Under the pieces are notes generated by a model, which saw only the letters and a program-made list of their open reading frames with translations, did not search any database and was not told the DNA's origin. This document shows positions 3,727-29,852 of a stretch of 29,852 nucleotides of DNA, in pieces. Source of the DNA: Macrostomum lignano (lineage: Eukaryota); contig NIVC01004968.1 in the NCBI GenBank assembly GCA_002269645.1, positions 1 to 29,852 on the forward strand, read 5' to 3'. The translations under genes were made by a program, and so were the position numbers. Position 1 is the first letter of the stretch. Each line of letters opens with the position of its first letter.

Positions 3727-4235
3727 CTGAAATCGGTTAGTTTGGAAATAAAAATCAATAGAGTAGCTTAATTTTAGCATTCATGCAATTTAAGTGCATT
3801 CGTTCGTACCCTAAAATTCAAGTAGCTAATGTAGGATACGAGGTTCGTTTTGGTTTGAAATATAACGAAGAAATGCTTCGTTCTATATATAGCCATTTTT
3901 GCTTACTCATAAATAATTATATCACACACGTCAGAGCTATAGGTTGCCACAGGTTGAATCGTTTACATTTATAATGTTAATAAATTAAGATAGACTAAAA
4001 TATAGGGTATACACACATTTCTTTTATGCAAGATAGCTTATAATTTAGTAAACTTATAATTAAGATAACTTTTGATTTAATTGGATCCTGGCAATCTTTT
4101 TGTGATTCGTGACCCGATCATTGATTGTCATTACTCATTGGTTTTATTATCAATGCCATAAAAATTGGTTAGTTACGAAAATTATTATTAAGAAAACAAA
4201 AGTACAAAGTAAACGTCTAAGCGGAAAGAACTCAC

Positions 4236-4443
4236 GCTGCGCGGCCAGACTCTCAATATCCTGCATCGCAGTCACCGCCTGCGTTAATAAACGCCGTCGG
4301 CGCGCTTCAATTAGCGCCTGTCTGGCGTTATTCGCCGTGCGAACATTGTCAGTGACGTAGGGCGAAGCTGGCACTGGCGCCCGAACGAGTCCGGCGCGAT
4401 CTGTCCGAGCTGTCAGCTGTGACAGGTCAAGCAAACTGGCCAT
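4236..4443 (-). CDS. First coding exon of uncharacterised helical protein
   Basis: ATG at 4443, donor CAGC|GTGAGT at 4236; 208 nt, MASLLDLSQL...QDIESLAAQ. Exons 1-3 sum to 603 nt (201 codons) with no stop. Confidence 0.8.
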
Positions 4444-6600: not shown

Positions 6601-6949
6601 GATCGGTAAGGCATTAAATTAATGATTCATAATTGGTAATGATGATAAACATCGATAATATTACTGTAATATTGGCATATTGCACAGCCGACTATGATGA
6701 GTGAAATCTGTAGCTAGAAATCGCGCTAAATAAGGCAAATAGGTGTATGATAGAAAAATGTATTTTTTGTCAATAAAAGTGGAAGCTTAAGAACAGACAA
6801 TAGAAAATTATTAATATCTAACTAACTACAGACACAACCAATTGTCCAAAATTAAAGAAAATTAAAAAAGTACAAACTTCCAGGCAAATAAAAATACAAA
6901 AAAATACCTAAGCCTGATCGCCGAATAACAAGAGAATTTTCATATTTTA

Positions 6950-7215
6950 AAGATTCGAGACTCTGGGCTACGGAATGGCAGATTTCTAGATCTGGGATTA
7001 CACATTTGGGATTTGGGACTCTCTCAGATTCAGTATTTCGAAATTTGGGATTTCGGACTCCTAGACAAGGGATTCTCAAAGTTGGGATTTGAAATTTGAG
7101 ACTCCCAGCTACGGGATACCTAAATTTGGGGATTTGGTATCCGGGACTCCCTCCGAGCTGCGGAATTTTGGATTCTTGAAATTTGGGATTTGAGTCTCTC
7201 CCAGCTTTGGGATGA
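6950..7215. repeat. Degenerate low-complexity (T)TGGGA(T/C)T-rich repeat
   Basis: Repeated GGGATT/GGGACT/GAGACT words with irregular spacing. Confidence 0.6.
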
Positions 7216-7249
7216 AAAACTTTTTTGCGTCGACTTTGAGACAGATGAT

Positions 7250-7255
7250 TTTATT
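7250..7255 (-). promoter_or_regulatory. Candidate polyadenylation signal AATAAA of the GALNT gene
   Basis: Minus strand reads CTG TGA TTT AATAAA, 3 nt after the stop codon. Position only; no transcript evidence. Confidence 0.45.
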
Positions 7256-7258
7256 AAA

Positions 7259-7780
7259 TCACAGCCTTTTGCTGTCGCTAGCAGCAGCTGGCACTTGCCG
7301 TTTCCATTTCCATTGCTGCCTCTTGTTGCCAGGCTTACAACTGGCCAGAGTGAGTTTATTACCTGGCGAAGCTTCCATACAGAGGCCTCTTAAAGCGTGA
7401 TAAATGCTGCCATCGGATCGATAGCGCCACTCCTGATTGCCGCGGCCGCCGTGACAATTGTAGATGATGACATTGTCACCGCCTGGAAAGTCTACGCAGC
7501 CTTCGTCCCGCCGAATTTCGCCGTTCTTAGACAGCATCCAGAACTGATTGCCGCCCTGGCCGTGACAGGGCCAGAGCTTCACGATGGTCCTGCCGGACTC
7601 GTGATGACTCACTGGCGAGTCAATGCAGTACGGCACCGCGGCGTTCTCGATGGGACCTCGGGCCAGAGCGTGTCTGGGCAGGAACAGTTCGGGGTAGACG
7701 GTGTCCAAATACCACTGGAAACTGCGGCAGCCAAGTCGCTGGCGGAGTGCTTTGCGTTCAGACACGTCGCCGTAATTTCC
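7259..7780 (-). CDS. GALNT: Polypeptide N-acetylgalactosaminyltransferase, last exon (end of catalytic domain plus ricin-B lectin domain)
   Basis: Phase-0 acceptor tttacgccAG|GGA; [32 protein letters not shown], then ricin repeats [42 protein letters not shown]; TGA at 7261-7259. Confidence 0.95.
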
Positions 7781-7867
7781 CTGGCGTAAATGGGATTTTG
7801 GAGATTCTTTTTAATTTAAACTAATTGCAGTTAAGACAAACAAGATAAGCCAGGGGTAGATGATAAT

Positions 7868-8218
7868 GATTGGATCTGAGTAGGGATCGATGGGATCAAA
7901 GTAGGAATCGATGGGATCAGAGTAGGGATCCATGGGATCAGAGTAGGGATCCATGGGATCAGAGTAGGGATCCATGGGATCAGAGTAGGGATCCATGGGA
8001 TCAGAGTAGGGATCAATGGGATCAGAGTAGGGATCAATGGGATCAGAGTAGGGATCAATGGGATCAGAGTAGGGATCCATGGGAACAGAGTATGGATTAA
8101 TCGGATCAGAGTATGGATTGATAGGATCAGAGTATGGATCAATCGGATCAGAGTATGGATTGATAGGATCAGAGTATGGATCAATCGGATCAGAGTATGG
8201 ATTGATAGGATCAGAGAT
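7868..8218. repeat. 21-bp minisatellite (GATCAGAGTAGGGATCCATGG)n, about 16 copies; right part alternates two variants (42-bp dimer)
   Basis: Period 21 at 7921/7942. ORFs 7811-8288 are repeat translations. Confidence 0.96.
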
Positions 8219-8678
8219 GAGGATTCAAGTAAAGATGTATTTCGCAAATATAAATCTGTTGAAAATCCTTTTGGCCTTGATAATTTGATGTTAAGCTAAA
8301 AATGATAAAATTATTAAAGCCAGACATAAACAAACGAAACAAACCGGTTTTGACTAGTTAAAGAATTCGAGAAAGCTTAGCAAATAAAATAAAAGATCAA
8401 AAAAACACATGATAATACGCCTAACTTGAATCTCAAGCCGGTTATAATAGAATTTAGCAGCCGAAACAGCGTGCATTAATAGCATTAATGGCTATGACAT
8501 GTCTCAACGTGCGCAAGTGGCGGTGTTACAACAAATAAGCTCTTTCGCGCGCATCTACTAGCTATGGAAATGTTATTATTTATCTGAGACAAATATAGAT
8601 CCAGGCATTTGCTAAAATTTGCACTGATTTTAAATCGACAACATTTAGTAAATTGAATGAAAAATTTCTATACTAAAC

Positions 8679-9655
8679 CAGCTACAGAGAGGGCGCCAGC
8701 TACAGAGAGGGCGCCAGCTACAGAGAGGAGGCGCCAGCTACAGAGGGGAGGCGCCAGCTACAGAGGGTAGGCGCCAGTTACAGAGGGGAGGCGCCAGCTA
8801 CAGAGGGGGCGCCAGCTACAGAGGGGCGCCAGCTACAGAGGCGGCGCCAGCTACAGAGGGGAGGCGCCAGCTACAGAGGGGGCGCCAGCTACAGAGGGGC
8901 GCCAGCTACAGAGGCGGCGCCAGCTACAGAGGGGAGGCGCCAGCTACAGAGAGGAGGCGCCAACTACAGAGGGGGCGCCAGCTACAGAGGGGGCGCCAGC
9001 TACAGAGGGGAGGCGCCAGCTACAGAGAGGAGGCGCCAGCTACAGAGGGGGCGCCAGCTACAGAGGGGGCGCCAGCTACAGAGGGGGTGCCAGCTACAGA
9101 GAGGCGCCAGCTACAGAGGGGGCGCCAGCTACAGAGAGGCGCTAGCTACAGAGGGGGCGCCAGCTACAGAGGGAACGCCAGTGAGGGGGCGGCAGCTACA
9201 AAGGGGGCGCCAGCTACAGAGAGGCGCCAGCTACAGGGGCGCCAGCTACAGAGAGGCGCCAGCTACAGAGGGGGCGCCAGCTACAGAGGGAACGCCAGCT
9301 TCAGAGGGGGCGGCAGCTACAGAGGCGGCGCCAGCTACAGAGGGGAGGCGCCAGCTACAGAGGGGAGGCGCCAGCTACAGAGGGGGCGGCAGCTACAGAG
9401 GCGGCGCCAGCTACAGAGGGGAGGCGCCAGCTACAGAGGGGAGGCGCCAGCTACAGAGGGAACGCCAGCTTCAGAGGGGGCGGCAGCTACAAAGGGGGCG
9501 CCAGCTACAGAGAGGCGCCAGCTACAGAGGGGGCGCCAGCTACAGAGAGGCGCCAGCTAAAGAGGGGGCGCCAGCTACAGAGGGAACGCCAGCTTCAGAG
9601 GGGGCGGCAGCTACAAAGGGGGCGCCAGCTACAGAGGGGCGCCAGCTACAGAGGG
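8679..9655. repeat. GC-rich 17-21-bp minisatellite (GGCGCCAGCTACAGAGGG(G/AG))n, intronic
   Basis: About 50 copies of CCAGCTACAGAG with variable G-run length. Confidence 0.97.
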
Positions 9656-9736
9656 CCTTGCTGAATATAAAGACAAAACTGAAGCTGAAATTTGCAGTCA
9701 AAGCATTATGCTCAGGCAATGAGATAATTTGCCTAC

Positions 9737-10369
9737 CTTTCCCCCTACTCTCTCGTAGTAGATAGTCGCGTACTCGTCCATCCACACGTCAGCCAGTCGC
9801 ACAGAATTCTTTTTCAACACGCTGCCGGTGCCCCAACTGTAGGGCGAGCGCTTCCGAAAGATGTGACCAACAATGGAGCAGGGCACAATCTCCAGGGTGC
9901 CGCCGCACATCCAAATTTTGAAGCTAATCTCTAAATTCTCTCCGCCCCAGATGTCGAATCCGGGATCGTAGCTGCCCAGATGGGCAAAGTATTTCCTGGA
10001 AATGGAGAACAGTCCGCCAGCCATGGTGGGGCTGCGAACCGGATCGATCCTACTTAGCCGGCGCTTCCTGTCGCGCTCGGGCACAACGTGCCAATTGAAT
10101 TGTAAATTCCAGTCGAATCCGCCAACACTCATCGAGTCTAAATTAGTTGCCGTGGACATTGCCAAGGTGCTATCGCTGATCACTTCGATAGTTGGCGTCA
10201 CAACGTTTGTCCAGTTGAGCGCGATCCGATGCAGCAGCGGCTCGAGCCAGCCTGTGGGGCATTCGCAATGCGAATCCAGGAATGTCAGCACAGTGCCTTC
10301 GGCTTTGCGGGCTCCCATTAACCTGGCGCGGATTAGGCCTTCGCGCTTGGCTGCCCGAAGGATTCGAAC
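9737..10369 (-). CDS. GALNT: GALNT exon, catalytic GT-A and Gal/GalNAc-T region
   Basis: Acceptor atcactcAG|GTT, donor AAG|GTAGGC; 633 nt, phase 0/0. Motifs REGLIRARL, FLDSHCEC (DxH), SPTMAGGLF, WGGENLEISFKIWMCGG, GHIFRKRSPY. Confidence 0.96.
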
Positions 10370-10454
10370 CTGAGTGATGCAAATTAGGCTACTTTTAGTA
10401 GTGTGAGAAGAATTATATTCAACTTTACATTGTATAACTTTACAACTACTTAAC

Positions 10455-10620
10455 TTGAAGGTCAGGGGTTCGATTCTTGATCCCACTAGAACAATTTGTG
10501 TCCTTGAGCAACACACTGAACTCTGCATTGCTTCAGTTCACCCAGCTGTAAAATGGATGCCAGCATTAGCTGAGGTAATTAAAGGTGTGCGTGGCGACCC
10601 CCCACAGTCCTTGGACTGAA
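10455..10620 (+). mobile_element. tRNA-derived SINE fragment with CORE-like central domain, 5' truncated
   Basis: B-box-like GGTTCGATTC at 10467-10476. It is followed by TGTGTCCTTGAGCAACACACT...CTTCAGTTCACCCAGCTGTAAAATGG (10497-10556), resembling the CORE-SINE consensus TGTGTGACCTTGGGCAAGTCACT...CTCAGTTTCCTCATCTGTAAAATGG. No A box seen. Confidence 0.55.
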
Positions 10621-10639
10621 CAGCCGCACGCAGCCTTCA

Positions 10640-11405
10640 GATCAGGTGACAATCACACGCTAATCTAATCAGTGATCAGGTGACAATCACACTAATCTAA
10701 TTAGTGATCAGGTGAAAATCACACTAATCTAATTAGTGATCAGGTGACAATCACACTAATCTAATTAGTGATCAGGTGACAATCACACTAATCTAATCAG
10801 TGATCAGGTGACAATCACACTTATCTAATCAGTGATCAGGTGACAATCACACACTAATCTAATCAGTAATCAGGTGACAATCACACACTAATCTAATTAG
10901 TGATCAGGTGAAAATCACACTAATCTAATTAGTGATCAGGTTACAATCACACACTAATCTAATCAGTGATCAGGTGACAATCACACACTAATCTAATCGG
11001 TGATCAGGTGACAATAACACACTAATCTAATTAGTGATCAGGTGACAATCACACTAATCTAATTAGTGATCAGGTGACAATCACACACTAATCTAATCAG
11101 TGATCAGGTGACCATCACACACTAATCTAATCGGTGATCAGGTGACAATCACACACTAATCTAATTAGTGATCAGGTGACAATCACACTAATCTAATTAG
11201 TGATCAGGTGACAATCACACACTAATCTAATCAGTGATCAGGTGACAATAACACACTAATCTAATTAGTGATCAGGTGACAATCACACTAATCTAATTAG
11301 TGATCAGGTGACAATCAAACACTAATCTAATCAGTGATCGGGTGACAATCACACACTAATCTAATCAGTGATAAGATGACAATCACACAATAATCTGATC
11401 AATGA
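10640..11405. repeat. 32/34-bp tandem repeat (GTGATCAGGTGACAATCACAC(AC)TAATCTAAT(T/C)A)n, about 23 copies, intronic
   Basis: Period 32 at 10681/10713; the 34-bp variant has an extra CA. Confidence 0.96.
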
Positions 11406-11437
11406 TATAAAAATAATTTCAATAAGTAAAACCTTAC

Positions 11438-11639
11438 TTTAGGCGAATAATAACGCATATATTCGGTGAGCGGCCGTTTCAGATGCTCATATTCGGATGC
11501 ATCGTCAACTAGAATAATTTCTTTAATAAGACTAGGCGGAGACCGATTGATAACCGAGTGCACAGTGCGCAGGAGCACTGACCAGGCCTCGTTGTGGAAG
11601 CAGATAATTACAGATGTGTCCGGCAGAGGACCCGGGTAT
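11438..11639 (-). CDS. GALNT: GALNT exon, start of GT-A domain (not in ORF track)
   Basis: Acceptor aactgcAG|A, donor AAA|GTAAGG; 202 nt: [67 protein letters not shown], in frame with the next exon (VRILR). Confidence 0.96.
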
Positions 11640-11702
11640 CTGCAGTTTTAGGGGAAAGAGCGCCTGTTTTTATAAGGCAATTTTGTAAGCAGTTCGTGTA
11701 AA

Positions 11703-14700
11703 TGAAAAAGGGGTGTTTATTAGTGACTATTGCAGGTAGCTTACGTGTGAATAAAAGGGGTGTTTATTAGTGACTATTGCAGGTAGCTTACGTGTGAATA
11801 AAAGGGGTGTTTATTAGTGACTATTGCAGGTAGCTTATGTGTGAATAAAAGGGGTGTTTATTAGTGACTATTGCAGGTAGTTTACGTGTGAATAAAAGGG
11901 GTGTTTATTAGTGACTATTGCAGGTAGCTTATGTGTGAATAAAAGGGGTGTTTATTAGTGACTATTGCAGGTAGCTTATGTGTGAATAAAAGGGGTGTTT
12001 ATTAGTGACTATTGCAGGTAGCTTATGTGTGAATAAAAGGGGTGTTTATTAGTGACTATTGCAGGTAGCTTACGTGTGAATAAAAGGGGTGTTTATTAGT
12101 GACTATTGCAGGTAGCTTACGTGTGAATAAAAGGGGTGTTTATTAGTGACTATTGCAGGTAGCTTACGTGTGAATAAAAGGGGTGTTTATTAGTGACTTT
12201 TGCAGGTAGTTTACGTGTGAATAAAAGGGGTGTTTATTAGTGACTATTGCAGGTAGCTTACGTGTGAATAAAAGGGGTGTTTATTAGTGACTATTGCAGG
12301 TAGCTTACGTGTGAATAAAAGGGGTGTTTATTAGTGACTTTTGCAGGTAGTTTACGTGTGAATAAAAGGGGTGTTTATTAGTGACTATTGCAGGTAGCTT
12401 ATGTGTGAATAAAAGGGGTGTTTATTAGTGACTATTGCAGGTAGCTTATGTATGAATAAAAGGGGTGTTTATTAGTGACTTTTGCAGGTAGTTTACGTGT
12501 GAATAAAAGGGGTGTTTATTAGTGACTATTGCAGGTAGCTTATGTGTGAATAAAAGGGGTGTTTATTAGTGACTATTGCAGGTAGCTTATGTGTGAATAA
12601 AAGGGGTGTTTATTAGTGACTATTGCAGGTAGTTTACGTGTGAATAAAAGGGGTGTTTATTAGTGACTATTGCAGGTAGCTTATGTGTGAATAAAAGGGG
12701 TGTTTATTAGTGACTATTGCAGGTAGCTTACGTGTGAATAAAAGGGGTGTTTATTAGTGACTATTGCAGGTAGCTTACGTGTGAATAAAAGGGGTGTTTA
12801 TTAGTGACTATTGCAGGTAGCTTATGTGTGAATAAAAGGGGTGTTTATTAGTGACTATTGCAGGTAGTTTACGTGTGAATAAAAGGGGTGTTTATTAGTG
12901 ACTATTGCAGGTAGCTTATGTGTGAATAAAAGGGGTGTTTATTAGTGACTATTGCAGGTAGCTTATGTGTGAATAAAAGGGGTGTTTATTAGTGACTATT
13001 GCAGGTAGCTTATGTGTGAATAAAAGGGGTGTTTATTAGTGACTATTGCAGGTAGCTTACGTGTGAATAAAAGGGGTGTTTATTAGTGACTATTGCAGGT
13101 AGCTTACGTGTGAATAAAAGGGGTGTTTATTAGTGACTATTGCAGGTAGCTTACGTGTGAATAAAAGGGGTGTTTATTAGTGACTTTTGCAGGTAGTTTA
13201 CGTGTGAATAAAAGGGGTGTTTATTAGTGACTATTGCAGGTAGCTTACGTGTGAATAAAAGGGGTGTTTATTAGTGACTATTGCAGGTAGCTTACGTGTG
13301 AATAAAAGGGGTGTTTATTAGTGACTTTTGCAGGTAGTTTACGTGTGAATAAAAGGGGTGTTTATTAGTGACTATTGCAGGTAGCTTATGTGTGAATAAA
13401 AGGGGTGTTTATTAGTGACTATTGCAGGTAGCTTATGTGTGAATAAAAGGGGTGTTTATTAGTGACTTTTGCAGGTAGTTTACGTGTGAATAAAAGGGGT
13501 GTTTATTAGTGACTATTGCAGGTAGTTTACCTGTGAATTAAAGGGGTGTTTATTAGTGACTATTGCAGGTAGCTTATGTGTGAATAAAAGGGGTGTTTAT
13601 TAGTGACTATTGCAGGTAGTTTACGTGTGAATAAAAGGGGTGTTTATTAGTGACTATTGCAGGTAGCTTATGTGTGAATAAAAGGGGTGTTTATTAGTGA
13701 CTATTGCAGGTAGCTTACGTGTGAATAAAAGGGGTGTTTATTAGTGACTATTGCAGGTAGCTTACGTGTGAATAAAAGGGGTGTTTATTAGTGACTTTTG
13801 CAGGTAGTTTACGTGTGAATAAAAGGGGTGTTTATTAGTGACTATTGCAGGTAGCTTACGTGTGAATAAAAGGGGTGTTTATTAGTGACTTTTGCAGGTA
13901 GTTTACGTGTGAATAAAAGGGGTGTTTATTAGTGACTATTGCAGGTAGCTTATGTGTGAATAAAAGGGGTGTTTATTAGTGACTATTGCAGGTAGCTTAC
14001 GTGTGAATAAAAGGGGTGTTTATTAGTGACTATTGCAGGTAGCTTACGTGTGAATAAAAGGGGTGTTTATTAGTGACTTTTGCAGGTAGTTTACGTGTGA
14101 ATAAAAGGGGTGTTTATTAGTGACTATTGCAGGTAGCTTACGTGTGAATAAAAGGGGTGTTTATTAGTGACTTTTGCAGGTAGTTTACGTGTGAATAAAA
14201 GGGGTGTTTATTAGTGACTATTGCAGGTAGTTTACGTGTGAATAAAAGGGGTGTTTATTAGTGACTATTGCAGGTAGCTTATGTGTGAATAAAAGGGGTG
14301 TTTATTAGTGACTATTGCAGGTAGCTTATGTGTGAATAAAAGGGGTGTTTATTAGTGACTTTTGCAGGTAGTTTACGTGTGAATAAAAGGGGTGTTTATT
14401 AGTGACTATTGCAGGTAGTTTACCTGTGAATAAAAGGGGTGTTTATTAGTGACTATTGCAGGTAGCTTACGTGTGAATAAAAGGGGTGTTTATTAGTGAC
14501 TATTGCAGGTAGCTTATGTGTGAATAAAAGGGGTGTTTATTAGTGACTATTGCAGGTAGTTTACGTGTGAATAAAAGGGGTGTTTATTAGTGACTATTGC
14601 AGGTAGCTTATGTGTGAATAAAAGGGGTGTTTATTAGTGACTATTGCAGGTAGCTTATGTGTGAATAAAAGGGGTGTTTATTAGTGACTATTGCAGGTAG

Positions 14701-15270
14701 TTTACGTGTGAATAAAAGGGGTGTTTATTAGTGACTATTGCAGGTAGCTTATGTGTGAATAAAAGGGGTGTTTATTAGTGACTATTGCAGGTAGCTTATG
14801 TGTGAATAAAAGGGGTGTTTATTAGTGACTATTGCAGGCAGCTTATGTGTGAATAAAAGGGGTGTTTATTAGGGACTATTGCAGGTAGCTTATGTGTGAA
14901 TAAAAGGGGTGTTTATTAGGGACTATTGCAGGTAGCTTATGTGTGAATAAAAGGGGTGTTTATTAGTGACTATTGCAGGTAGCTTATGTGTGAATAAAAG
15001 GGGTGTTTATTAGTGACTATTGCAGGTAGCTTATGTGTGAATAAAAGGGGTGTTTATTAGGGACTATTGCAGGTAGCTTATGTGTGAATAAAAGGGGTGT
15101 TTATTAGGGACTATTGCAGGTAGCTTATGTGTGAATAAAAGGGGTGTTTATTAGGGACTATTGCAGGTAGCTTATGTGTGAATAAAAGGGGTGTTTATTA
15201 GTGACTATTGCAGGTAGTTTATGCATCAATAATAACAGGGGGTGTTTATTAGGAATCATTGCAGGTAGCT
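11703..15270. repeat. 47-bp tandem array (GTGAATAAAAGGGGTGTTTATTAGTGACTATTGCAGGTAGCTTA(C/T)GT)n, about 75 copies, filling most of a GALNT intron
   Basis: Period 47 (11751/11798); near-identical units with no spacers; last unit degenerate. Confidence 0.99.
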
Positions 15271-15308
15271 ATATAAAAATGATAGCAAACTCCATTCATA
15301 CTACTTAC

Positions 15309-15684
15309 TTAGCGGCTTTGCACTGAGCGTCGCGATTATCGCCCAACTCTCTATCCAGCGAGATCATATCGCTGGCGTATTGATTAAATGCGTTTCTCTG
15401 CCAGCCTTCGTCGTATTTTCTTCGTTCAGTGGAGGACAGCTTGTTCTTGTCAATGTTGACAGGGCGGCCGCCTTCGCCGTGCTCGTGTCCCGGGTTGGGA
15501 TAGGCGGCCCACAGCTCTCGAATATGGGCCGGCGGTGCTCGGCGAACCCGTCTGGTGACAATGTGCTGGCCGAGTTTGAGTCATCTGGATGGAGCTGCGG
15601 CTTCTGCTGCTGTGCTTGTTGATGACGATGAGCCTGGAGCATGTCCCGGTGGTGCACCCGGTTGAATATGATCTCGTCGCGTAC
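15309..15684 (-). CDS. GALNT: GALNT stem/pre-catalytic exon; 3' part certain, 5' boundary uncertain (in-frame TGA at 15583-15581)
   Basis: Donor AA|GTAAGT at 15309; phase 2 joins the next exon (K-YPGP). Conserved HGEGGRPV...KYDEGWQRNAFNQYASDMISLDRELGDNRDAQCK resembles gly-5/pgant9-type enzymes. Best acceptor tcccctgccAG at 15684; alternatives at 15565 and 15551. Confidence 0.8.
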
Positions 15685-15769
15685 CTGGCAGGGGATACCA
15701 AGTGATTAATTATATATGTATACATTATAATCCTGATAGTACTTAGTCAAAGTAGTTCAAAGCGAAATT

Positions 15770-16620
15770 TAAAGCGATTTTAAGGCGATTTTGAGCCAAC
15801 TCAAAGCAATTGTCCAGGCAAAATACAGGTAGTTTTCAAAGCGATTCTCAAGAAGAACTTTAAGCAATCTTCACGGCGCAATTCGGGCGAATCGATCGAA
15901 TCGAATCGATTCGGGATTTTCAAGGCAAAATTAAGGCGATTCTCAGAGCGAAATTAAGGCGATTCTCAGAGCGAAATTAAGGCGATTCTCAAGGCGAAGT
16001 TAGGGCGATCCTCAAGGTGAAATTAAGGTAATTTTCAAGGCGTAATAAAGAAATCTTAAGAACAAAATTACGAGATTCTCAAGGCGAAGTTAGGGCGATC
16101 CTCAAGGTGAAATGAAGGTAATTTTCAAGGCGTAATAAAGAAATCTTAAGAACAAAATTAGGAGATTCTCAAGGCGAAGTTAGGGCGATCCTCAAGGTGA
16201 AATTAAGGTAATTTTCAAGGCGTAATAAAGAAATCTTAAGAACAAAATTAGGAGATTCTCAAGGCAAAGTTAGGGCGATTCTAAAGGTGAAGTTAAGGCG
16301 ATTCTAAAGATTAATTTAAAGCGATACTCTGGGTGAATCTTAGGCGATTCGAAAGGTGAAGTTAAGGCGATTCTAAAAATTAATTTAAAGCGATTCTCTG
16401 GGTGAATCTTGGGCGATTCTCTGGGTGAATCTTGGGCGATTCTCTGGGTGAATCTTGGGCGATTCTCTGGGTGAATCTTGGGCGATTCTCTGGGTGAATC
16501 TTAGGCGGTTCTCAAGGTGAAGTTAAGGCGATTCTAAAGATTAATTTAAAGCGATACTCTGGGTGAATCTTAGGCGATTCTCAAGGTGAAGTTAAGGTGA
16601 TTCTCAGGATGTAATTAAAG
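15770..16620. repeat. Hierarchical degenerate repeat on an AAGGCGATTCTC-like base, including three 90-bp units and about five 23-bp units
   Basis: AAATCTTAAG at 16051, 16141 and 16231; CGATTCTCTGGGTGAATCTTGGG at 16391, 16414 and onward. Confidence 0.9.
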
Positions 16621-16808
16621 CAATTCCCAAGTAATGTGTTAAGGATGATGTTCTTCTGGAGGTGTACATACTCCCGGCTACGCATGAGGCGTACATCTGT
16701 GTATTCGATTCTCATGGCAATCAAAAAATTCTAGATTTAAACATTTTTCGATCAAATAGAGAACGATTTAAGCGCACACGATTTTCAGCTAGTTAGGTCG
16801 AAGTGCAG

Positions 16809-16879
16809 TCCGGAAAAATTGCCAACGAGGAGCGAAGCGAGCGAAGCGAGCGTAGCTCCTCGTTGGCAATTTTTTCGGA
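16809..16879. other. Long hairpin: 25-bp arms (one mismatch) around a GAAGCGAGCGAAGCGAGCGTA loop
   Basis: TCCGGAAAAATTGCCAACGAGGAGC (16809-16833) versus GCTCCTCGTTGGCAATTTTTTCGGA (16855-16879). Confidence 0.92.
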
Positions 16880-17060
16880 CAAACGAGACCGAGATAAGAT
16901 GTCCCGGAGACTCCCCCAACGTAAAATCAACGTTTTAGAAAATAAAATTGATGCAGAGTTAAAACCACTTGAGATGAAACCATGTGTGACCCCTCTATGG
17001 ACGTAAAACATTTAGGGCTACAAGATGTGTGACGTGAAAGTTCCATAGCAACGCGTCTTG

Positions 17061-18955: not shown

Positions 18956-20448
18956 GATGACATCATGCGCATTGCGTTGCGTAAAAGTGTGGGTCCACAG
19001 TTTCGTAACAAGTTAAAATGACCTGATTTCGCAAAAATCTTTAAAACAAAAAATACCAAATAGGTAACTAAAAAGCCTTTTGAAACTGAATAAAAAATGC
19101 ACATAAAAGTGCTATTTTGTAACGTAAAAAGTCTTGCGTCCTGCAAAAATCTTCTATGGTGACTTTTTGGAGCCGTGAAGTGTAAAAACGTGCGCATTTT
19201 TAAAGCTGTTGAACTTACTTTTTGAGGTATATTTTGAAAATAGGCATTTTATAAATTGTATAACAAAATTTAATTGAAGAAAGCAATAAGGTAAAATAGA
19301 ATTCGAAATTATTTAATTTTGAAATAATTAAACTGTACATTTCAGTCGTTCTGTTCCTTATAATTTCTACAAAAATTTAAATTTAAATCGGTTATGTTAA
19401 CAGTAGTTTATTGCTGTAGGACAAATTTGACCCCAAATTTTCAAAGCAACTTATCTAAGCAAACGCTATCTAAATCTGAAATATTTTCAAGCTTCAATCT
19501 GTAGCTATAATATTCGGTTTTGTTACGCTATTTATTCGTATCCTACTACATTATATATAATTATTGTACAATATATTATATTCTACAAGTACAAGTTTTA
19601 ATTGTAATATATTCAATTGTTATCAGTTTTACACTGTAAGTGTAAGCTTCAAATTTTATTTGAAATATAACTGAAGTATAGTACTTTAATATTATTTTAT
19701 AGCTAATTAATTGTATTCTGCCAAATATTTACGTTTTTTTTCTCTGCTTTGCTTTTTGCTCCATATTTTTATAAATTATAGTCATATTTACATATATCTT
19801 TTAAAAGTACTCATCCTTTCACATTTTATTTTGTAGTTATCAGTCAAATTTAACTTGAATTTTCCTTTTGTTTGCATAATTTTGACTTAAGACTTTAGTT
19901 TTGAAGTAAGTATTCTTTTTATTTCTTCATATGTTTAGCATAGTACAAATATCTGTAGTACTCTGCTTAATGGTAGAAGTTTGTGGACACTTTTTATAAA
20001 TTCTGCTCAATTTATTATAAATTTAGCATTTTTGCTAGACAATATATACATGCCAATGCTCCTTATATCAAGCAATGCTTGAAAGTGCTAGACACTTAGT
20101 TTATGGTGAATTTTTACCAAGGGATGTTTTTTTGCTGATATAGAATTCCTAGAAGCATGTACAAAAACATGGAATATGCCTGAAAAAACTCTAGAAAATA
20201 TGCACTAAATCCAAGAAAAAATGTTGAAAGCACAAAAACTACATGGCACACACCGCCTATATGCCAGTATATTATGCTGCAGCATATTAATCCACAATCC
20301 AGTAGCAGTGCTAGTGTTCGTAGTTTAACTAAATTTGCCACCAGAAAAGAGTTGAGTTAACTTGGTAAAGAGTAGCATGTTTTCTGTGTTTAGCTAATTA
20401 GTTTCTTTATCATTCTGAAATATTTACTAACATGTTTATTTAGACAGG

Positions 20449-20527
20449 ATGGGCAACGACAAAAACAGCATCAAGGACAACACTAGCATTAACAAGGATA
20501 CAAGTGCTTCTTCTGTTGCTGCCAATA
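20449..20527 (+). CDS. Predicted first coding exon of the Helitron RepHel gene
   Basis: ATG at 20449, preceded by TACTAAC (20425-20431) and AG acceptors; MGNDKNSIKDNTSINKDTSASSVAAN; donor A|GTAAGT, phase 1 matches exon 2. Confidence 0.6.
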
Positions 20528-20734
20528 GTAAGTTTTGTACATTTGTTGCAACTTGCAGGTGATAGGTGCTACTTTCAGGAATAGTTTCAAAGCAATCCTA
20601 CCTTTATTATTAATATTCACACCTTAGGAAACCAGCTTTTACTAGCATTCTTGGCTGCCCATTTGGGCAACAGACAAACTAAAAAGTTCCTGCACTACAC
20701 AATTTATTTACCAAACAATAAATCTCAATTGTTC

Positions 20735-21030
20735 ACACTATAACTCACACTGAATAGTTCACAGGTAATTCTGTAAAAAAGTGTTTTTCAGATGTCTAAA
20801 AATGTGAATTTTTCAAACTCTTAACTGACGCAGCTCAAATCAATAGTTCACACTCAATAGTTTAGATTGAATAGTTTCGCCTGAATAGTTTTGACAGACA
20901 GAATAATTTCAACTGAATAGTTACAACTGAATAGTTTAGACTTAATAATCTTGACTGAGTAGTTTTGACTGAATAGTGTGAACTCAATAGTTTCGACTGA
21001 GTAGTTTCGACTGAATAGTTTCGACAAAGG
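20735..21030. repeat. Degenerate minisatellite of (ACT)GAATAGTT(T) words inside RepHel intron 1
   Basis: More than 12 AATAGTT/AGTAGTT words, interrupted by a 77-bp insert at 20763-20839. Confidence 0.8.
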
Positions 21031-21242
21031 GAATAAATTCAATTGGAATCTGACCTTGTTTGACAGATCATTAAAATAATTATAGAAACTCTATTTTCGA
21101 ATGTTTAACACCCTTAGAATTTGAGCAGATTTAAGAAATTTTGACCACTGTATAATCAGTGCAAAATCTGCAATAGTTTAGAAAAAACGCTATCAAAATT
21201 GATCAAGAATGGCACGCTCTAGAGCGAAATAGATGGACAGAC

Positions 21243-21265
21243 ATATATATATATATATATATATA
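21243..21265. repeat. (AT)n microsatellite preceded by GGACAGAC
   Basis: Read directly. Confidence 0.9.
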
Positions 21266-21306
21266 GGTAGATTTATAAATTTCTTTTTTACTGTGACTTT
21301 AAACAG

Positions 21307-21678
21307 GTGCGAAAAAGTGCGGACGGCCGAAGAAGAAAAACTGGAGCCGCTCCAAGAATAATATTAAAGTTGCTGCTGTCGGTGATTTAACTGCTGGCGA
21401 AGAACAGATTCAAGAGCCAGATGTACAACCGGAAGCTGCTGCTGCCTCTTCTATTGCCGCTGCTGGGACTAAAGCTGGTGCTTCTGCTGATGCTGCTGCT
21501 AAAACTGAGTCTGTGATTAAGCTGGACGAGGCTGGTCTGGCTGCCCTGCTAGCTGAACATGATGCTGCTCTGGCCGACGCTCTGGCTGCTTCGGAATACC
21601 CCGTGGTCGAAGGTGATGCTGAAGTGCCCAATTCTGGTGCTGCTTACAATGAGCAACTTATAGGCTACTTGAGTGCTG
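21307..21678 (+). CDS. Predicted exon 2 of RepHel: GRP/AT-hook-like motif, Ala-rich linker, UIM-like motif
   Basis: Acceptor tttaaacAG|GT, donor G|GTGAGA; 372 nt, phase 1/1, stop-free: SAKKCGRPKKKNWSRSK...EHDAALADALAASE...GYLSA. Splices in frame to exon 3 (G+AT = D of DETG). Confidence 0.78.
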
Positions 21679-21863
21679 GTGAGAGTTTTATTTTTTATTG
21701 AATTTCTATGCATAGTACAAGTTAATTTTCTTTCTTACATCTGACTTTGCTTGCGAATATTGAAAATTAGATTTTAGTGTTTACGACTTGTGCAAAATAC
21801 AATTAATGCTCAATTCCTTAAAATTATCATACCTCACTGTTTAAGAGTTGTATTCTTTTACAG

Positions 21864-24800
21864 ATGAAACAGGTGCTACTGCAATGGATTTTGCCGAAGG
21901 TCATGTAACTGCTGCTGTACAAGTCCAACCTGTATGGGTTCCTTTTTCTTCGTGTCGCGTTGAGAATGTACGAGGTGACGGCAACTGTTTTTTCACGGCC
22001 ATATTGAGACAATTACAAGAACTGCCAGGTTTTTCCGCCTATCAATCGCTAAGCGTAGAAGATTTTCGAGATGCGGTTGCTGCAGAATTCGAGCAATGGG
22101 TGCATCGCGATGTCAATAATCAGGAAAGAATTATGCAAACAGGACTGAATTGGGAAAAAGTGCGCGACGATACAAGGCGTCCCCGTATGTACGTGCCATG
22201 CGGAGTTCCAGAACTAATTGGTGAACTGTTGCGGCTAGAAGTGTTTATTTATCAGTCAAACATGCTTAATCTAGCGCGGCCTGGCCATTATTCCCGACCG
22301 AATATTGGAGAACGTTTGGCTACTATTCGATTGTTGTTTAATCCTGGTAGTCAACACTACGAAATCGTTCGTGTCAATGATTTGGAAGTTAATGAAGCAA
22401 GCTCAGTTCGGCCGACTGGCCAAGGAGATTTGAGCGCCAAGAATGTGGAAATGCCCCCTCTCAACGAGAATGTTCATGTTGTCGAAGATCCTGTTGTAAT
22501 GATGCCACCTCCAGCTCCACCAATGACGCCTTTTGAAAAGGTTGCAGACTGGACCCGAGTTCAAAGTAGGCATTGGAAGGGACGTTGTAGAAATCAAGCA
22601 AAGTCCTTGGAAAATAATACGAGTTTGTTTGCGCATCCGAATTCATATGAAGTGCTTCGGGATCGGAACAACTCTGTCTGGAATTGGAATGTCGATCTTG
22701 ACGCGGAGGATAGCGCAGAGTCAGTTGAAATTGAGCATGTGTCAGAGTCAGTTAAAAGTGATCGTGTGTCAGAGTCCGTGCCATCAAATGTTCCGCGGCG
22801 CAGTCGGCGTAAAAAGGATGTTGGGAAGGCAAGTTGCGCTACGCGTCGGAGTAGTCGACTGAGCGCTAAAGCAAACACATTAGAGTCTGTGTCTGTTGCA
22901 GCCTCTAGTGTATCTGGTCAGAGCTTATTGAGAAGAAGCAGTCGCACTCGGAGAGCACCATGTTGCAGTTGCATCGGTTGTGGCGACTCAGTTTCGGCGG
23001 TTTCAAGCGTTTCTTGCCATTTGGAAAAAGGAAGAGGTCGAGAAAAGAAGAGCGACGTTGTACCAAGTGCTCCTACTCGTCGCAGCGAGCGTTTGAAAAA
23101 CCAGCAGCAAGTGGTCAACTATGCAAATTCTTTACCACGGAAACAGAGATTGACAAACGCAGAAAATCATATCTGCGAACCCGTTCGATCGTCGCCTAGG
23201 AAGACGGCACCTTTGCAGCAGGAGCAGCAAGATAAACGTCAGTCTGATAATATTCCAGCTACTTCTACGTATTCATCACCACGAAAGACACGTGCTACTC
23301 AGGAGAAGCCTGATGAAGCGATCCGTTCGTCACCCAGAAAGCGGCCTACAATGGAGCAGCAGCCAGCTAAAGAAAATGTTCCGCAGAGCAGCACTTCAGA
23401 AGAGAGCGCTCAAGATGCTCCAATTGTTGAAGATGAAATCGGAGATCCTAATCTGCCAAAGTGCCTTCGCAATCCGTTCACAGACCAGTTCAAAAAGATG
23501 AGGCAAGACTTTTTCAATGAAAACATAACAAAAGTATCACATTTGAAACAGTGCTACGTGTGTAGGGAAAAGTTTCCTGGAAAATATTTTAGCATCGATT
23601 CTGAAGACATGTGCGATCGTTGTTTCAGAGATGACAATGAGCCGAAATCGTTTAGCCAAGAAAACAATGCGATTCCGATGTTGGAGCAGCCAGAAGATTT
23701 GCAAGATTTGAGTGTAGCAGAGCAAATGTTGATTTCGCCAGTTTTGTCGGTTATTGTTGTGGTACAAATTTTTCCCCAAAAGCAAACAAAATCGAGAGGA
23801 CACGGAATCATGTTGCCTCAAGATCAGTCGCACGTTTTGCGAGAGCTGCCAAGACGATCTCTGCCAGTTGTTTTAATGTACGACGAAAGAGCCCGTGTTC
23901 AGCCTGGAGAAGCGCAAAGCGGCACAATGAACAATTTGCGAGTTCGACGCGACAAAGTGACTAATGCGATGCGCTATTTAATGGCAAACAACAAGTACTT
24001 TAGACAGTATCAGGTTTCAATGAATAATGATGCGTTGCTACATCTGCCTGAAGATGGTTATGCTCATCAAGTAGAAGGTATGATTGTCGAAATGCAGTCT
24101 GACAATGAAGTGAATTTCGAGGCGGCACAGCAAGAAGGCGGCTCAGCCAGAGCTGAGCGATTGCAGCAACAAGTAGAAAAAAATGCGGACGAGACGAACG
24201 AGCTCGAGGAAACAATTAGTTCGCTGTTGGAGACTCCTTTGCGTCGATTGGAATCGGCAGTACGAGACAAATTTTTGAGTGAAAAATTGAAATGGCCAGC
24301 AAGAAGCAACGAGCCGGTAAACGAATTTCAGGATGAAGGATATTTTACATTGGCTTATCCTCATCTCTTTCCGGATGGAGCAGGAGATTATAGTACGCCA
24401 CGTAATTTTGGACTAAGTTTGGGCGACTATGCAAAGCATTTGATGCAATTCCGGTGTCCAAGATTTCGTACCGATTTGCGGTTTAAATTTTACATTGAAA
24501 ATATGGTGATGCGTTGGAGGGCGCTGGAAGTTGGTCGCGTGTTTGTACACGACAACAAGTATGCTGGATTAAGTGCCAAGGAAATGATTGAAGCACTAAA
24601 TGACCCGGCAGTATTGGCTAGCGTGTCAGTTCGAGCATCAGATTTGCGAGGCACAAGCGCTTATTGGCAGAGTAAAGGACGGCAATTGGAAGCCATGATT
24701 CGAACGCTTGGTGTTCCTCATTTTTTCGTGACACTATCGGCAGCAGATGTACATTGGCCAGAGTTGCAGCATGCCTGGGGAATCGATGCAGAGCAATATG

Positions 24801-27800
24801 AAAGCAATGTAGAACTAAGAGCAGAAATGTTGTCAAAGTTGCAAAAAGATCCCGGAATGGCAGACACTGTGTTTTGGTTGCGATTTGAAACATGTTTGAA
24901 ACGTTTTTTGGTCGAGCACTGGAAAGTAAACGATTATTGGTTTCGCATAGAATATCAGAGTCGCGGAAGTCCACACGTTCACGGTTGCATTTGGATGCCA
25001 GATGGTGTTGATGTGACATCGAATACATTGAATGCAGAAGAATTGACGAGCTTTGTTGACAAGTACATCTGTAGTTGGAATTTGGCCATGGACGAATCGG
25101 ATTATGGAAATCAAGTTTTGAATGGCAGTTTAGCAGGTCAAGGTCATCCAGCTCAACTGAAACCGGAAGAGATTGAAAATGACAAGCAAGATTTGCAGTT
25201 AATTTCGCATTTGACAGAGAGGCACACTATTTGCAGTAAAAAGTGCTTGCGAACAGTAAAAGGCAAACAAGAGTGCCGATTCAAGTATCCGCGCGAGCCG
25301 CAGGAAAAGACTGTTGCAAAGCGAGTATCCCGTTTAAATTGGCAAGTTGAGACGCAGCGCAACGACGAGCGAATGATTTCTCACAGTCCGCAGTTGCTGT
25401 GCATGTGGAGAGCCAATGTCGATGTTCAAATGATTTCGTCCGTGAAGAATTTGATTCGCTATTTGATCAAGTATGCGACAAAAAGCGAAAAGGAGTCGGA
25501 TTATATGGCGGAGCTGACAAAGCGTCTTCATAAGGAGTTGGAAGATAATGCAGAACAGAATGCCGATAACAATTTTCAGCGTAGCAACACTGCAAGGCGT
25601 GTTGTACAACAACACTTGATGGCGCAAGTTGGAGCGCGTGATTATTCGGCGCAAGAGGCAATGCATTTGCTATTGCAGACGTCAATGTACAAGGGTTCGC
25701 GAGAATTTGTTTTTGTTCAGACTGGCGAAACCCGCGCAGTGGAGGAAAAGGGTGTTTGCAGGAATAGTTGCGACAAGTATTCAAAGCGTGCAAAGAATTT
25801 GGAAAATGTAACAATGTTTCGTTTCTTTTCCGACTACTGTCTCAGCCCTAATGGGAGGTGCACAAAAAGGCCGAAACAAGTAGTTTTGCTAATCAGTCCA
25901 TTTTTTCGACCGAATGAGCAATCAGACGAAAGACGCGAAGGCTATTATCGGCAGCAGGTTTTGTTGTACAGTTGTTGGCGAAATGAGCGAGAAGCCAAAG
26001 GTTTGCACACAAGCTGGCAGCAAGCGTACGAAGCCATGCCTGCTGAGAATCGATGCGAGCTGCAGCTGCCCAATTTGGACGATTTGCGCAACGACGAAGC
26101 TGACGAAGAAGTCGAAGCAGTTGCGGAGCTACCCGAAATGACCAACGCAAATGCGCAATCTGCTGCTCAGCCAACTTATGAGCACGAAGAGCAAGAAGAT
26201 TGGATGGTTGCAGTGGGGGCACTTCATCGCGAGAGAAATCTATTGGCCTGTCCAGAAGATCAATTGCCAAAGCCGCCAGAAAATTTTGACTGGAGCGCAG
26301 CTAGTGGCGGCCAGTTTCCAACGGTTGGAGAAGCAAAGGCGTTTTTAAGTAGCGACCTAAAACTTGGCGCAAGAGAGGTCGCTGACATGCCGATAAACAG
26401 TGTTGAATCGCTTAATGTTCGGCAGCGAGAAATGTACAACCTAATTGAAAGTCATTTGCAGCTTTCAAGACTAGCCGAAGAAAACCAAGGCGAAAAGCCG
26501 GAGCCTCTCAAAGCAATTTTGTATGGTAGCGCTGGAACTGGAAAAAGCTACTTGATTTCTACATTGCGTCGGTTGATTGGAGAATCAAGATGCAGAATTA
26601 TGGCATCAACAGGCGTAGCCGCTTTCAATATTGCAGGCGAAACTTTGCACTCGGCTTTGAAATTGAATGTAAATTTTAGTGCTGGTGTTGGCAAGAAATC
26701 CCTAATGGAGATGCAAGAGCAGTGGAAAGATGTGCGCTACATTTTTATTGACGAATTTAGCATGCTTGGCCAAAGGTTACTCCGTAAGGTGGATGCTCGT
26801 TTGCGCGAATTGTTTCCAGAACACAGTAAACAGAGTTTTGGTGGTCGATCTGTAATCCTAATTGGCGACGTGTTTCAATTGCCTCCAGTTTTGGACACGC
26901 AACTGTACGTTTACAATCCAAATCAAAAGAAGCACGATATATTGAAATCTGAAGGCTATAAATTGTACATGGAGTTCAAAAAGGTTGTGCATCTGACAGA
27001 ACAAGTCCGACAAGCAAACGATACGGAATTCGCCCAGTTGTTGGATAAACTTCGCGAAGGCAAGGCCGACGAAGCCTGCTGGAATTCGTTGATGAACAAT
27101 TGTCGCGTCTATGCTCCCGACCTTTTGCCTGAAGGTTTCCAAAGCGGGTGTACATTTTTATATCACACTAACGAGGATGTGAGAAATCGCAACTACATGC
27201 TATTGGGAAAGATGGTTTCCGAATTGAATCCTGTGCGGCAAATTAACGCAATTTGTAAAGGAGACGAAGCAAAATTGTGTGGCAAAAAGAAGGAACATAA
27301 AAAATCGGATACGAATCTGGAGAAGCGACTCTATTTGTGTATTGGTGCTCGAGTAATGCTAACTAGAAATCTGTCAGTACGCAATGGACTTGTGAATGGA
27401 TCAGTTGGAACTGTACGAGGAATTTGCTACGCTCCTGGAAGGCAATCACCAAAGGATTGGCCAGATTGTATTTGGGTTGAATTTGACAATTATTCTGGCC
27501 CAGCAATGGGGGCAATTGTACAAGATAATCGTGCAATTCGTGTAGTGCCAATTCTGTCAGTAACGAATGAAAAGTTTAAAGGAGGAGCCCAATTGTCGCG
27601 TCAACAATTTCCACTACGATTGGCTTGGGCTAGTACGATTCACAAGAGCCAAGGACTTACAATTCCAAAAGCGTACGTGGCGTTTAGCAAAGGAGGCGCC
27701 AGGAAAGCTATTCCAGCTGGATTATTTTATACTGCGGTGAGTAGAGTTCGTGCATTTGCAGATTTGCGAGTATCAAGTTGCGATTACAACAATTTCGTGA

Positions 27801-27892
27801 GCCTTTTTTCTGCACAAAAAGTGCAGACGCAGTTGCATGAGCAAAAGCGTTTGCTGAGAATGTGCTCATCCGCGAATTCTGATAGCCGCTAA
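21864..27892 (+). CDS. Helitron Rep-helicase main exon: OTU protease, basic disordered linker, Cys motif, HUH Rep, PIF1 (SF1B) helicase
   Basis: Acceptor attcttttacAG|AT. OTU GDGNCFF (Cys at 21986) and HY (His at 22355); CYVC..CDRC; EGYFTLAYPHLFPDGAGD; FFVTLSAAD; RGSPHVH (HUH, 24974-24982); YLIKYATK (25460-25483); Walker A GSAGTGKS (26525); DEFSML; GDVFQLPPV; QVRQ; TIHKSQGLT. No stop in 6 kb. Confidence 0.95.
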
Positions 27893-27905: not shown

Positions 27906-29852
27906 AGTCGGCAACTATTTAGTCAGCAACTATCCATCCAGTCAGCATCCGTCCAGTCAGCAGCCGTCAGTCAGCAACAATCCAGTCAGCAACCATCCAG
28001 TCAGCAACCATCCAGTCAGCAAACATCCATCCAGTCAGCAACCATTCGTCCAGTCAGCATCCATCCAGTCAGCAACCATCCAGTCAGCAACCATCCAGTC
28101 AGCATCCGTCCAGTCAGCAGCCATCCAGTCAGCAACCGTCCATCCAGTCAGCAACAATCCAGTCAGCAATCATCCAGTCAGCAACCATCCAGTCACAACC
28201 ATCCAGTCAGCAGTCATCCAGTCAGCAACCATCCGTCCAGTCAGCAACCATCCGTCCAGTCAGCAATCATCCGTCCAGTCAGCGACCATCCAGTCGGCAA
28301 CCATCCAGTCACAACCATACGTCCAGTCAGCAACCATCCAGTCAGCAACCATCCAGTCAGCAACCATCCATCCATTCAGCAACCATCCAGTCAGCAACCA
28401 TCCAGTCAGCAACCATCCAGTCAGCAACCATTCGTCCAGCAACCATCCATCCAGTCAGCAACAATCCAGTCAGCAACCATCCAGTCAGCAAACATCCATC
28501 CAGTCAGCAACCATTCGTCCAGTCAGCATCCATCCAGTCAGCAACCATCCAGTCAGCAACCATCCAGTCAGCATCCGTCCAGTCAGCAGCCATCCAGTCA
28601 GCAACCGTCCATCCAGTCAGCAACAATCCAGTCAGCAATCATCCAGTCAGCAACCATCCAGTCACAACCATCCAGTCAGCAGTCATCCAGTCAGCAACCA
28701 TCCAGTCAGCAACCATCCGTCCAGTCAGCAATCATCCGTCCAGTCAGCGACCATCCAGTCGGCAACCATCCAGTCACAACCATACGTCCAGTCAGCAACC
28801 ATCCAGTCAGCAACCATCCAGTCAGCAACCATCCATCCATTCAGCAACCATCCAGTCAGCAACCATCCAGTCAGCAACCATCCAGTCAGCAACCATTCGT
28901 CCAGCAACCATCCATCCAGTCAGCAACAATCCAGTCAGCAACCATCCAGTCAGCAACCATCCAGTCAGCAACCATCCATCCAGTCAGCAACCATCCAGTC
29001 AGCAGCCATCCTGTCAGCAGCCATCCAGTCAAGCCGTCCAGTCAGCAGCCATCCAGTCAGCAACCGTCCATCCAGTCAGCACAATCCAGTCAGCGACCAT
29101 CCAGTCAGCAACCATCCAGTCAGCAACCATCCAGTCAACAACAGTCCATCCAGTCAGCAAACATCCATCATCAGCACCATCCAGTCAACAACAGTCCATC
29201 CAGTCAGAACCATCCATCCAGTCAGCAACAATCCAGTCACAACCATACATCCAGTCAGCAACCATCCAGTCAGCAACCATCCGTCCAGTCAGCAACCATC
29301 CAGTCAGCAGCCATCCTGTCAGCAGCATCCAGTCAGCAGCCATCCAGTCAGCAACCGTCCATCCAGTCAGCACCATCAGTCAACAACCATCCAGTCAGCG
29401 ACCATCCAGTCAGCAACCATCCAGTCAGCAACCATCCAGTCAGCAAACATCCATCCAGTCAGCAACCATCCAGTCAACAACAGTCCATCAAGTCAGCAAC
29501 CAATCATCCAGCGCAACAATCCAGTCAGCAACAATCCAGTCAGCAACATCAGTCACAACCATACATCCAGTCAGCAACCATCCAGTCAGCAACCGTCCAT
29601 CCAGTCAGCAACAATCCAGTCAGCACAATCCAGTCAGCAACCGTCCATCCAGTCAGCAACATCCAGTCAGCAACCATCCATCCAGTCAGCACCGTCAGTC
29701 AACAACCATCCAGTCAGCGACCATCCAGTCAGCAACATCCAGTCAGCAACATCCATGTCAAACAGCAGTCCATCCAGTCAGCAACATCCATCCAGTCAGC
29801 AACCATCCAGTCAAACAACAGTCCATCCAGTCAGCACCACCATCCAGTCAGC
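27906..29852. repeat. 15-bp minisatellite (CATCCAGTCAGCAAC)n with 19-bp variants, over 100 copies, running off the window
   Basis: Read directly; the WLLTG-type ORFs are repeat translations. Confidence 0.98.

Follow-up and report, generated by a model that had tools for sequence, protein, structure and literature searches.

Rolling-circle transposons of the Helitron2 type (HLE2) encode a Rep-helicase (RepHel) with a DUF6570 domain and an OTU domain already described upstream of it, and they are further characterised by short subterminal inverted repeats, hairpins at both ends, an internal minisatellite and, in Helitron2, the lack of an endonuclease domain (PMC11417382; PMC4067079). Here we describe an element with all of these features in the flatworm Macrostomum lignano, on contig NIVC01004968.1 of assembly GCA_002269645.1 (forward strand, positions 1 to 29,852; this whole stretch of 29,852 nucleotides is referred to as the window). 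A segment at 21555..22372 had been taken, in a reading made from the letters of the DNA alone, for a ubiquitin-interacting motif (UIM) directly upstream of an intact OTU domain, as in cellular deubiquitinases such as OTUD1 and OTUD5. We find that this segment is the front of the spliced Rep-helicase of a young HLE2 transposon and not a cellular enzyme. The element differs from the described HLE2 and Helitron2 transposons, which insert in TT or T(T/C) without duplication (PMC11417382; PMC4067079), in having a strict CTAG^T target, with the 5-mer standing once in empty sites and twice in filled ones.

Several other described systems resemble this element in part. The proto-Helentron of Phytophthora infestans also has an HLE2-type protein without an endonuclease and, if the cut in our element is read as CTAG^T, the same 5′ TT and 3′ CTAG ends, but it is described from oomycetes only and inserts between A and T (PMC4067079; PMC11417382), whereas here we have an animal element with subterminal repeats at both ends and a requirement for four bases before the cut. 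Replitrons and IS91 are likewise HUH transposons, with short direct end repeats in the former and a tetranucleotide target in the latter, but they are without a Pif1 helicase (PMC10288648), and in the M. lignano element empty sites reveal one repeat copy as host target DNA. A deubiquitinase module fused to a rolling-circle transposase is known from the Helitron VTDs, which have been shown to be active and are proposed to shield transposition proteins from the proteasome; 121 Helitrons have both VTD and OTU, and transposon OTUs are stated as not yet assayed (PMC9741609). Our element, by contrast, has no VTD or endonuclease, and its OTU is known from sequence and a model. Finally, human OTUD1, OTUD3 and OTUD5 share the minimal OTU fold with its Cys and His loops, but they are cellular single-copy genes, and the UIM of OTUD1, which sets its specificity for Lys63, is C-terminal (PMC3705208). 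The comparison with OTUD1/OTUD5-type enzymes drawn in the sequence-only reading overlooks the context, as the OTU here is the N-terminal module of a Helitron2-type transposase and the helix before it is N-terminal and fails several UIM positions. With regard to target sites, Helitrons are reported to insert at AT, TT or T(T/C) without duplication (PMC11417382; PMC4067079; PMC10288648; PMC13085455); a target preference as such is not new, because a TNAT^A preference in Fusarium (PMC5148889), telomere-repeat targeting in Paramecium (PMC13085455) and variable duplications for some algal Helitrons (PMC10288648) have been reported.

The identity of the element is given by one open reading frame, which holds OTU, DUF6570, Helitron_like_N and PIF1 (Pfam E values in Table 1) with HUH, YxxKY and Walker motifs intact, that is, the RepHel with HUH, Y2, Pif1 helicase and DUF6570 by which HLE2 or Helitron2 is recognised. 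Its ends agree with this class as well, having short subterminal inverted repeats and terminal hairpins, with the right end formed by a short hairpin followed by CTAG. It is not a Helentron in the narrow sense, in which an AP endonuclease follows the helicase, since the reading frame stops after the helicase and no such domain was matched in Pfam. Nor does it conform to HLE1 (5′ TC, 3′ CTRR following a hairpin, AT insertion): a 3′ hairpin and CTAG are present, but the 5′ end is TT, the target is CTAG^T, and there are inverted repeats and a DUF6570. Among named proteins the nearest belong to M. lignano itself (99-100% in the matched parts).

The structure of the gene was obtained from splice joints in contigs of four runs from four studies, which are presumed to be RNA, though not recorded as such; the splice evidence consists of the joints only, with read depth forming no part of it. 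The joints 20527->21307 and 21678->21864, both with GT..AG ends, are in contigs of all four runs and 19905->20444 is in those of three, and by these joints and in-frame translation the spliced frame from the ATG at 20449 encodes one HLE2 Rep-helicase of 2,159 amino acids. In the genome the helix falls within an open reading frame at 21303-21701 and the OTU at the start of another, of 2,015 codons, at 21845-27892, the OTU-bearing exon being 21864-27892; numbered along the spliced protein, the UIM-like Ser falls at position 122, the catalytic Cys at 192 and the His at 315. The segment 21555..22372 is accordingly not the single unit it was taken for, as it is not one reading frame and frame 1 from 21555 stops soon. 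The helix is indeed upstream of the OTU, but on a separate exon and, after splicing, about 50 residues before the domain. That exon encodes 25% Ala, with GCT used for 26 of its 31 Ala codons. Because the public gene model of this element family (P0003) omits this exon and the catalytic Cys, databases hide the OTU of the family; the same model fuses unrelated 3′ sequence.

The element has recently multiplied, is transcribed and spliced, and retains intact Rep and helicase motifs. Its OTU is 100% identical in at least 45 genomic places among the 137 matches listed, at least 14 of these places have the complete frame of 2,015 codons, and the helix segment is identical in 46 of 53 own-genome matches. 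Over 1,094 bp, 18 of 20 copies are identical in DNA and the remaining two differ by one gap; copies share sequence from 16789 onward and diverge at that point. The internal minisatellite runs off our contig; in other copies the stop and the last minisatellite repeat are 2.9-6.0 kb apart, and the right end lies about 1,080 bp further on. Two further contigs (L161 and L162) carry the element with the left flank of the window, so that this insertion is present in three assembled places, and composite or tandem partial copies in which left ends or OTU segments are repeated were seen at L143 (G000:C68:39700), L049, C3095 and C4943. A 20358->16789 joint found in two runs was considered as a circular intermediate and rejected, as it exists in the genome in the composite copy L143.

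The most distinctive property of the element is its target site. Exact ends numbered 38 on the left and 35 on the right, and 30 of each were fetched for comparison of their flanks. CTAGT closes each of the 27 distinct left flanks (about 24 of them independent, given two near-duplicate pairs and one internal composite), and at each of the 27 distinct right ends CTAG is followed by T; the frequency of CTAG in flanking DNA is 0.33% of positions. Both flanks of the C3052 copy match four empty sites, each with CTAGT once; for the C540 copy, where only the right flank is comparable, five uninterrupted repeats carry CTAGT before that flank. The 5-mer is therefore present once in empty and twice in filled sites, which is not the insertion into TT or T(T/C) without duplication described for HLE2. 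Because the empty sites hold CTAGT once and the junctions read CTAG plus T, the element inserts at a word that copies its own 3′ end. Although the exact cut point within the CTAGT 5-mer cannot be fixed from sequence, the ends read as CTAG^T give an element running from 5′ TT to 3′ CTAG, and strict CTAG^T targeting in the manner of IS91 is in our view very probable.

Table 1. Features of the HLE2 element in the window (positions of the window; strand + is forward).
Feature	Position	Strand	Evidence or remark
CTAGT target word at left junction: host CTAG and the element's probable first base T	16789..16793	+	
Left subterminal inverted repeat, 13 bp	16795..16807	+	Partner in other copies, about 26-38 bp inward of the right end
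Long left-end hairpin	16808..16881		16789-16900 folds as DNA with -34.6 kcal/mol (without shuffle control)
5′ untranslated exon	end at 19905	+	Joint 19905-20444
First coding exon, ATG at 20449	20444..20527	+	Joints 19905-20444 (3/4 runs) and 20527-21307 (4/4 runs), in-frame translation
Second coding exon: basic GRP motif, disordered Ala-rich linker, two predicted helices	21307..21678	+	
Ala-rich amphipathic helix: UIM-like core (21555-21596) and two D/E-x-x-L-A-x-x-L patterns	21528..21596	+	
GT..AG intron of 185 nt between helix and OTU	21679..21863	+	Joint in 4/4 runs
OTU domain; Cys 21986-21988, His 22355-22357, Glu 22361-22363	21929..22387	+	
Basic Ser/Arg-rich linker; RRSxRL at 22844-22861 and 23078-23095, three SSPRK	22388..23550	+	
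Cys4 zinc-finger-like motif and DUF6570	23552..24019	+	DUF6570 as HLE2 marker (PMC11417382)
Rep HUH endonuclease; HVH 24974-24982, YxxKY 25460-25474	24428..25474	+	Pfam Helitron_like_N, E 1e-29
Pif1-like helicase, Walker A and B, stop 27890-27892	26500..27892	+	Pfam PIF1, E 6.9e-27
15-bp minisatellite inside the element, runs off contig	27934..29852		

Two sister families in the genome, both with an OTU, allow the layout to be compared. Families B and C are 73% and 63% identical in Rep to the element described here (family A), and the three form one clade (SH-aLRT 100) in a quick tree with long branches, which serves to establish this clade only. The layout of family B is similar, as its splice joints confirm, with a basic start, an Ala-rich linker, two helices, an intron at about the same place and then the OTU. 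Family C has inverted repeats of its own, and its left flank is CTAG in three of four cases (CTTG in one), its start TT, its end CTAG and the next base T in three of four. The linker that follows the OTU at 22388..23550 matched no Pfam family at E up to 10; between 22844 and 23341 it has RRSxRL twice and SSPRK three times, and the family B protein has similar motifs despite its diverged linker. Among the clade's neighbours in the tree are two proteins (one a long branch) with a Ulp1-type protease instead of the OTU. Related Rep-helicases were seen with an N-terminal Ulp1-type protease, a C-terminal OTU or two OTUs (P0158, P0184, P0175, P0178, P0036 and P0067), and from these sequences the place of the ubiquitin-like protease in Rep-helicases looks exchangeable. 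The genome also holds many further OTU-bearing repeats (L029-L038; 24-31% identity), some behind Arg/Glu-rich repeats, and because a representative protein (P0005) joins an OTU of this type to a Helitron_like_N piece, other Helitron families of the genome also carry an OTU.

The OTU carries GDGNC at 21974-21988 and QHYEI at 22352-22366, with its catalytic Cys and His where the sequence-only reading placed them, and it thus has the D-x-x-C of the Cys loop and a His loop with an acidic residue two positions after the His (HYE). This position supplies the third catalytic residue of OTU proteases; the present element has Glu there, and the relatives have E, D or Q. Residues D, G, N, C, H and Y are invariant in 14 of 14 own-genome OTU relatives (24-32% identity). 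In the proposed Pfam check all 14 family members match PF02338 at E up to 1 (best 1.4e-6), the present copy alone staying under the cut-off (see below), and a profile of the own-genome OTUs finds OTUD3 (E 1.5e-6) and nairovirus OTUs; phmmer with this OTU alone against the PDB gave weak otubain matches only (E 0.02), together with chance matches. The predicted structure has a pLDDT of 86.3, and the matches listed by Foldseek and VIA are OTU-family chains throughout, the best in VIA being a viral OTU (Z 12.7; root-mean-square deviation (rmsd) 3.0, 135 residues aligned), with OTUD3 at Z 12.1 (rmsd 3.0, 126 aligned). The ratio of nonsynonymous to synonymous substitution (dN/dS) in the OTU is 0.15 between two family B copies, from 18 synonymous and 10 nonsynonymous changes in this one pair, similar to the 0.13 of the helicase in the same pair. 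By family conservation, profile and structural matches the signal of an intact OTU is above chance, and it is well supported, from sequence and model, that the domain is a genuine cysteine protease of the OTU fold whose catalytic set is complete. It is likely to be an active deubiquitinase serving the transposon. The protease reading is carried by the fold, the family conservation and purifying selection; the helix, taken earlier to strengthen the case for a true deubiquitinase, does not add to it.

The helix itself lies where it was reported, with EHDAALADALAASE at 21555-21596, and one possibility is that it is a degenerate but working ubiquitin binder, either a UIM or an inverted MIU, which would feed ubiquitin chains to the OTU and set its linkage preference in the way of OTUD1. 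Compared with the UIM consensus (PMC5361193), the core hydrophobic-x-x-Ala-hydrophobic-x-x-Ser is present as LADALAAS at 21570-21593, and a single-sequence AlphaFold model predicts an amphipathic helix, as in a UIM, at exon residues 74-94 (pLDDT about 76). However, the predicted helix ends just before the Ser, and only one of the four acidic consensus positions agrees, with H-D-A before the core and a Pro three residues after the Ser; the residue before the Ser is Ala, where nine of ten host UIMs have L, I, M or V. Pfam UIM (PF02809), which had been named as a check, gave no match at E up to 10 with two cuts of the peptide, and the helix is not among 32 own-genome UIM matches (13 over the cut-off) in a search that scores first-look candidates only. 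On a UIM matrix built from ten host matches, four over the Pfam cut-off and six under it, the helix scores 9.9 bits, about half of the 20.6-29.0 bits of the host motifs when each is left out in turn. With respect to composition, LxxALxxS occurs in 1.1% of exon shuffles and in 0.5% with the preceding acidic residue, these patterns having been chosen post hoc, and the shuffle P for UIM-like patterns is 0.005-0.011. The helix also has two copies of what we take to be the MIU pattern (acidic-x-x-Leu-Ala-x-x-Leu), for which the shuffle P is 0.02-0.05 for at least one and 0.002-0.006 for a longer pattern. UIM-like scores are enriched in OTU relatives (9/150, against 1/300 shuffled), but four of 50 Rep-helicases reach 10-12 bits by acidic helices without the UIM core. 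A pair of acidic Ala/Leu helices also precedes the OTU of family B, but these, of the form ELxxAAAALxE[S/C/A]G, do not keep the UIM register, have S, C or A at the Ser position and lack the MIU-like pattern; in family C, the 2.5 kb that precede the OTU contain no helix of this type. The best UIM scores upstream of the OTU are at most 6.5 bits in family B and -1.1 in family C, and neither sister family keeps the motif. The signal of the helix is above random and far below that of real UIMs, and to judge from its sequence it is more likely an Ala-rich linker helix than a working ubiquitin binder, which we regard as unlikely. What remains of the UIM claim is the core LxxALxxS and the predicted amphipathic helix; the acidic flanks, the Pfam score and conservation in the sister families all fail to bear it out.

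As for the OTU, other roles have to be weighed against that of an active deubiquitinase in the service of transposition. Introns, transcripts and an OTUD-like fold would be compatible with a cellular gene for an OTU and UIM deubiquitinase of the OTUD1/OTUD5 kind, but this is refuted by Rep and helicase in the same open reading frame, dozens of identical copies, unrelated flanks and transposon ends, and it has next to no probability. An active OTU could instead act on chromatin or host silencing factors (e.g. ubiquitylated histones near the insertion site), to which it would be brought by the basic linker. RRSxRL is kept in families A and B amid a poorly conserved linker, and both families have N-terminal basic GRP motifs; we take these motifs to be like those of chromatin-binding proteins, but short basic motifs may be nuclear import signals only, and we find such a role doubtful. 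It is also conceivable that the OTU is a self-processing protease which cuts the long protein, an option raised in PMC4067079, or an inert passenger, given that it is not always present in HLE2 (PMC11417382) and that the OTU profile matches only eight of 50 Rep-helicases scanned. We consider this very improbable, since all the close structural matches are ubiquitin or ISG15 isopeptidases, the catalytic residues are invariant under the low dN/dS noted above, and close relatives have a Ulp1-type protease at the same place, pointing to ubiquitin-like modifiers.

The best explanation of the whole, which we hold to be probable, is an HLE2 Rep-helicase with a likely active OTU and a linker-type helix, and it draws on the observed gene structure, joints, copies, ends, CTAGT junctions and catalytic residues together with a predicted OTU fold. 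Several observations weigh against parts of it. No other segment of the whole protein is as UIM-like as the helix, exon shuffles reach its 9.9 bits with P 0.006 only and one in 173 random genomic stretches scores as high, and a distant HLE2 protein (P0036) has a better UIM-like helix, at 13.7 bits, after its OTU. The present OTU copy alone scores 15.5 bits, below the PF02338 cut-off of 23.3. A comparison of the C48 copy with its paralogue in C102 shows CTAG kept and then A, with the right flank not joined, and gives no clean empty site, and the ends of family B were not found in the stretches compared. The larger combination, an HLE2 clade in a flatworm with proto-Helentron-like ends, CTAG^T-only integration, an active OTU and a degenerate ubiquitin-binding helix, seems to us improbable; its weak component is a working helix, whereas the targeting is well supported.

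With this best explanation, an HLE2 transposon with a likely active OTU, we propose the following mechanism. According to the general Helitron model, Rep would nick the left junction and the helicase would peel off one strand, the right hairpin would end the process, and the peeled strand would then be joined into the target. Rep would cut a single word, CTAG^T, at three places (where the donor begins on the left, where the element ends on the right, and in the target), because all three read CTAG^T, and with one-word cutting the apparent 5-bp duplication would therefore need no staggered break. Acting in cis, the OTU would strip ubiquitin from the transposase or its covalent protein-DNA intermediate and so delay its destruction, the choice of substrate being purely our conjecture. 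By analogy, such a role would be in line with the protection proposed for the Helitron VTDs (PMC9741609).

Outside the element, the window from 1 to 16631 has dense strand-skewed minisatellite arrays with units of 22, 74, 30, 34, 47 and 23 bp, the 47-bp array having 76 copies at 96%. On the minus strand, a host gene resembling those for polypeptide GalNAc-transferases is represented by fragments at 7262-7810 and 9701-10537, with matches to the glycosyltransferase 2 domain (E 1.2e-17) and the beta-trefoil lectin domain (E 4.9e-29); tandem repeats of 18 and 21 bp lie between the fragments.

In the literature covered, with Repbase, subscription papers and supplements outside its scope, we found no UIM on a Helitron, no CTAG^T target and no assayed transposon OTU, and the passages covered of one paper found for Helitrons and M. 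lignano contain nothing on this family. The segment as first reported amounts to an architecture already described plus an additional motif of little strength; what is new in the element is its strict self-matching target together with proto-Helentron-like ends. Little is gained from the UIM claim unless ubiquitin binding can be demonstrated. For the activity of a transposon OTU the family is a clean case, because it has spliced transcripts, catalytic residues that are intact and identical copies by the dozen. A sister family with 48% protein identity shares the strict CTAG^T target, which is at odds with the dinucleotide rule of four papers (PMC11417382; PMC4067079; PMC10288648; PMC13085455). 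This target suggests one recognition word for donor ends and target, which bears on the mechanism of Helitrons, and it also bears on annotation tools in which boundaries are presumed to be T-T or A-T and on tools for site-selective delivery. If the larger combination above is true, this would be a young, intact and transcribed rolling-circle transposon in a transgenic-ready animal, in which both target choice and OTU activity would be directly testable.

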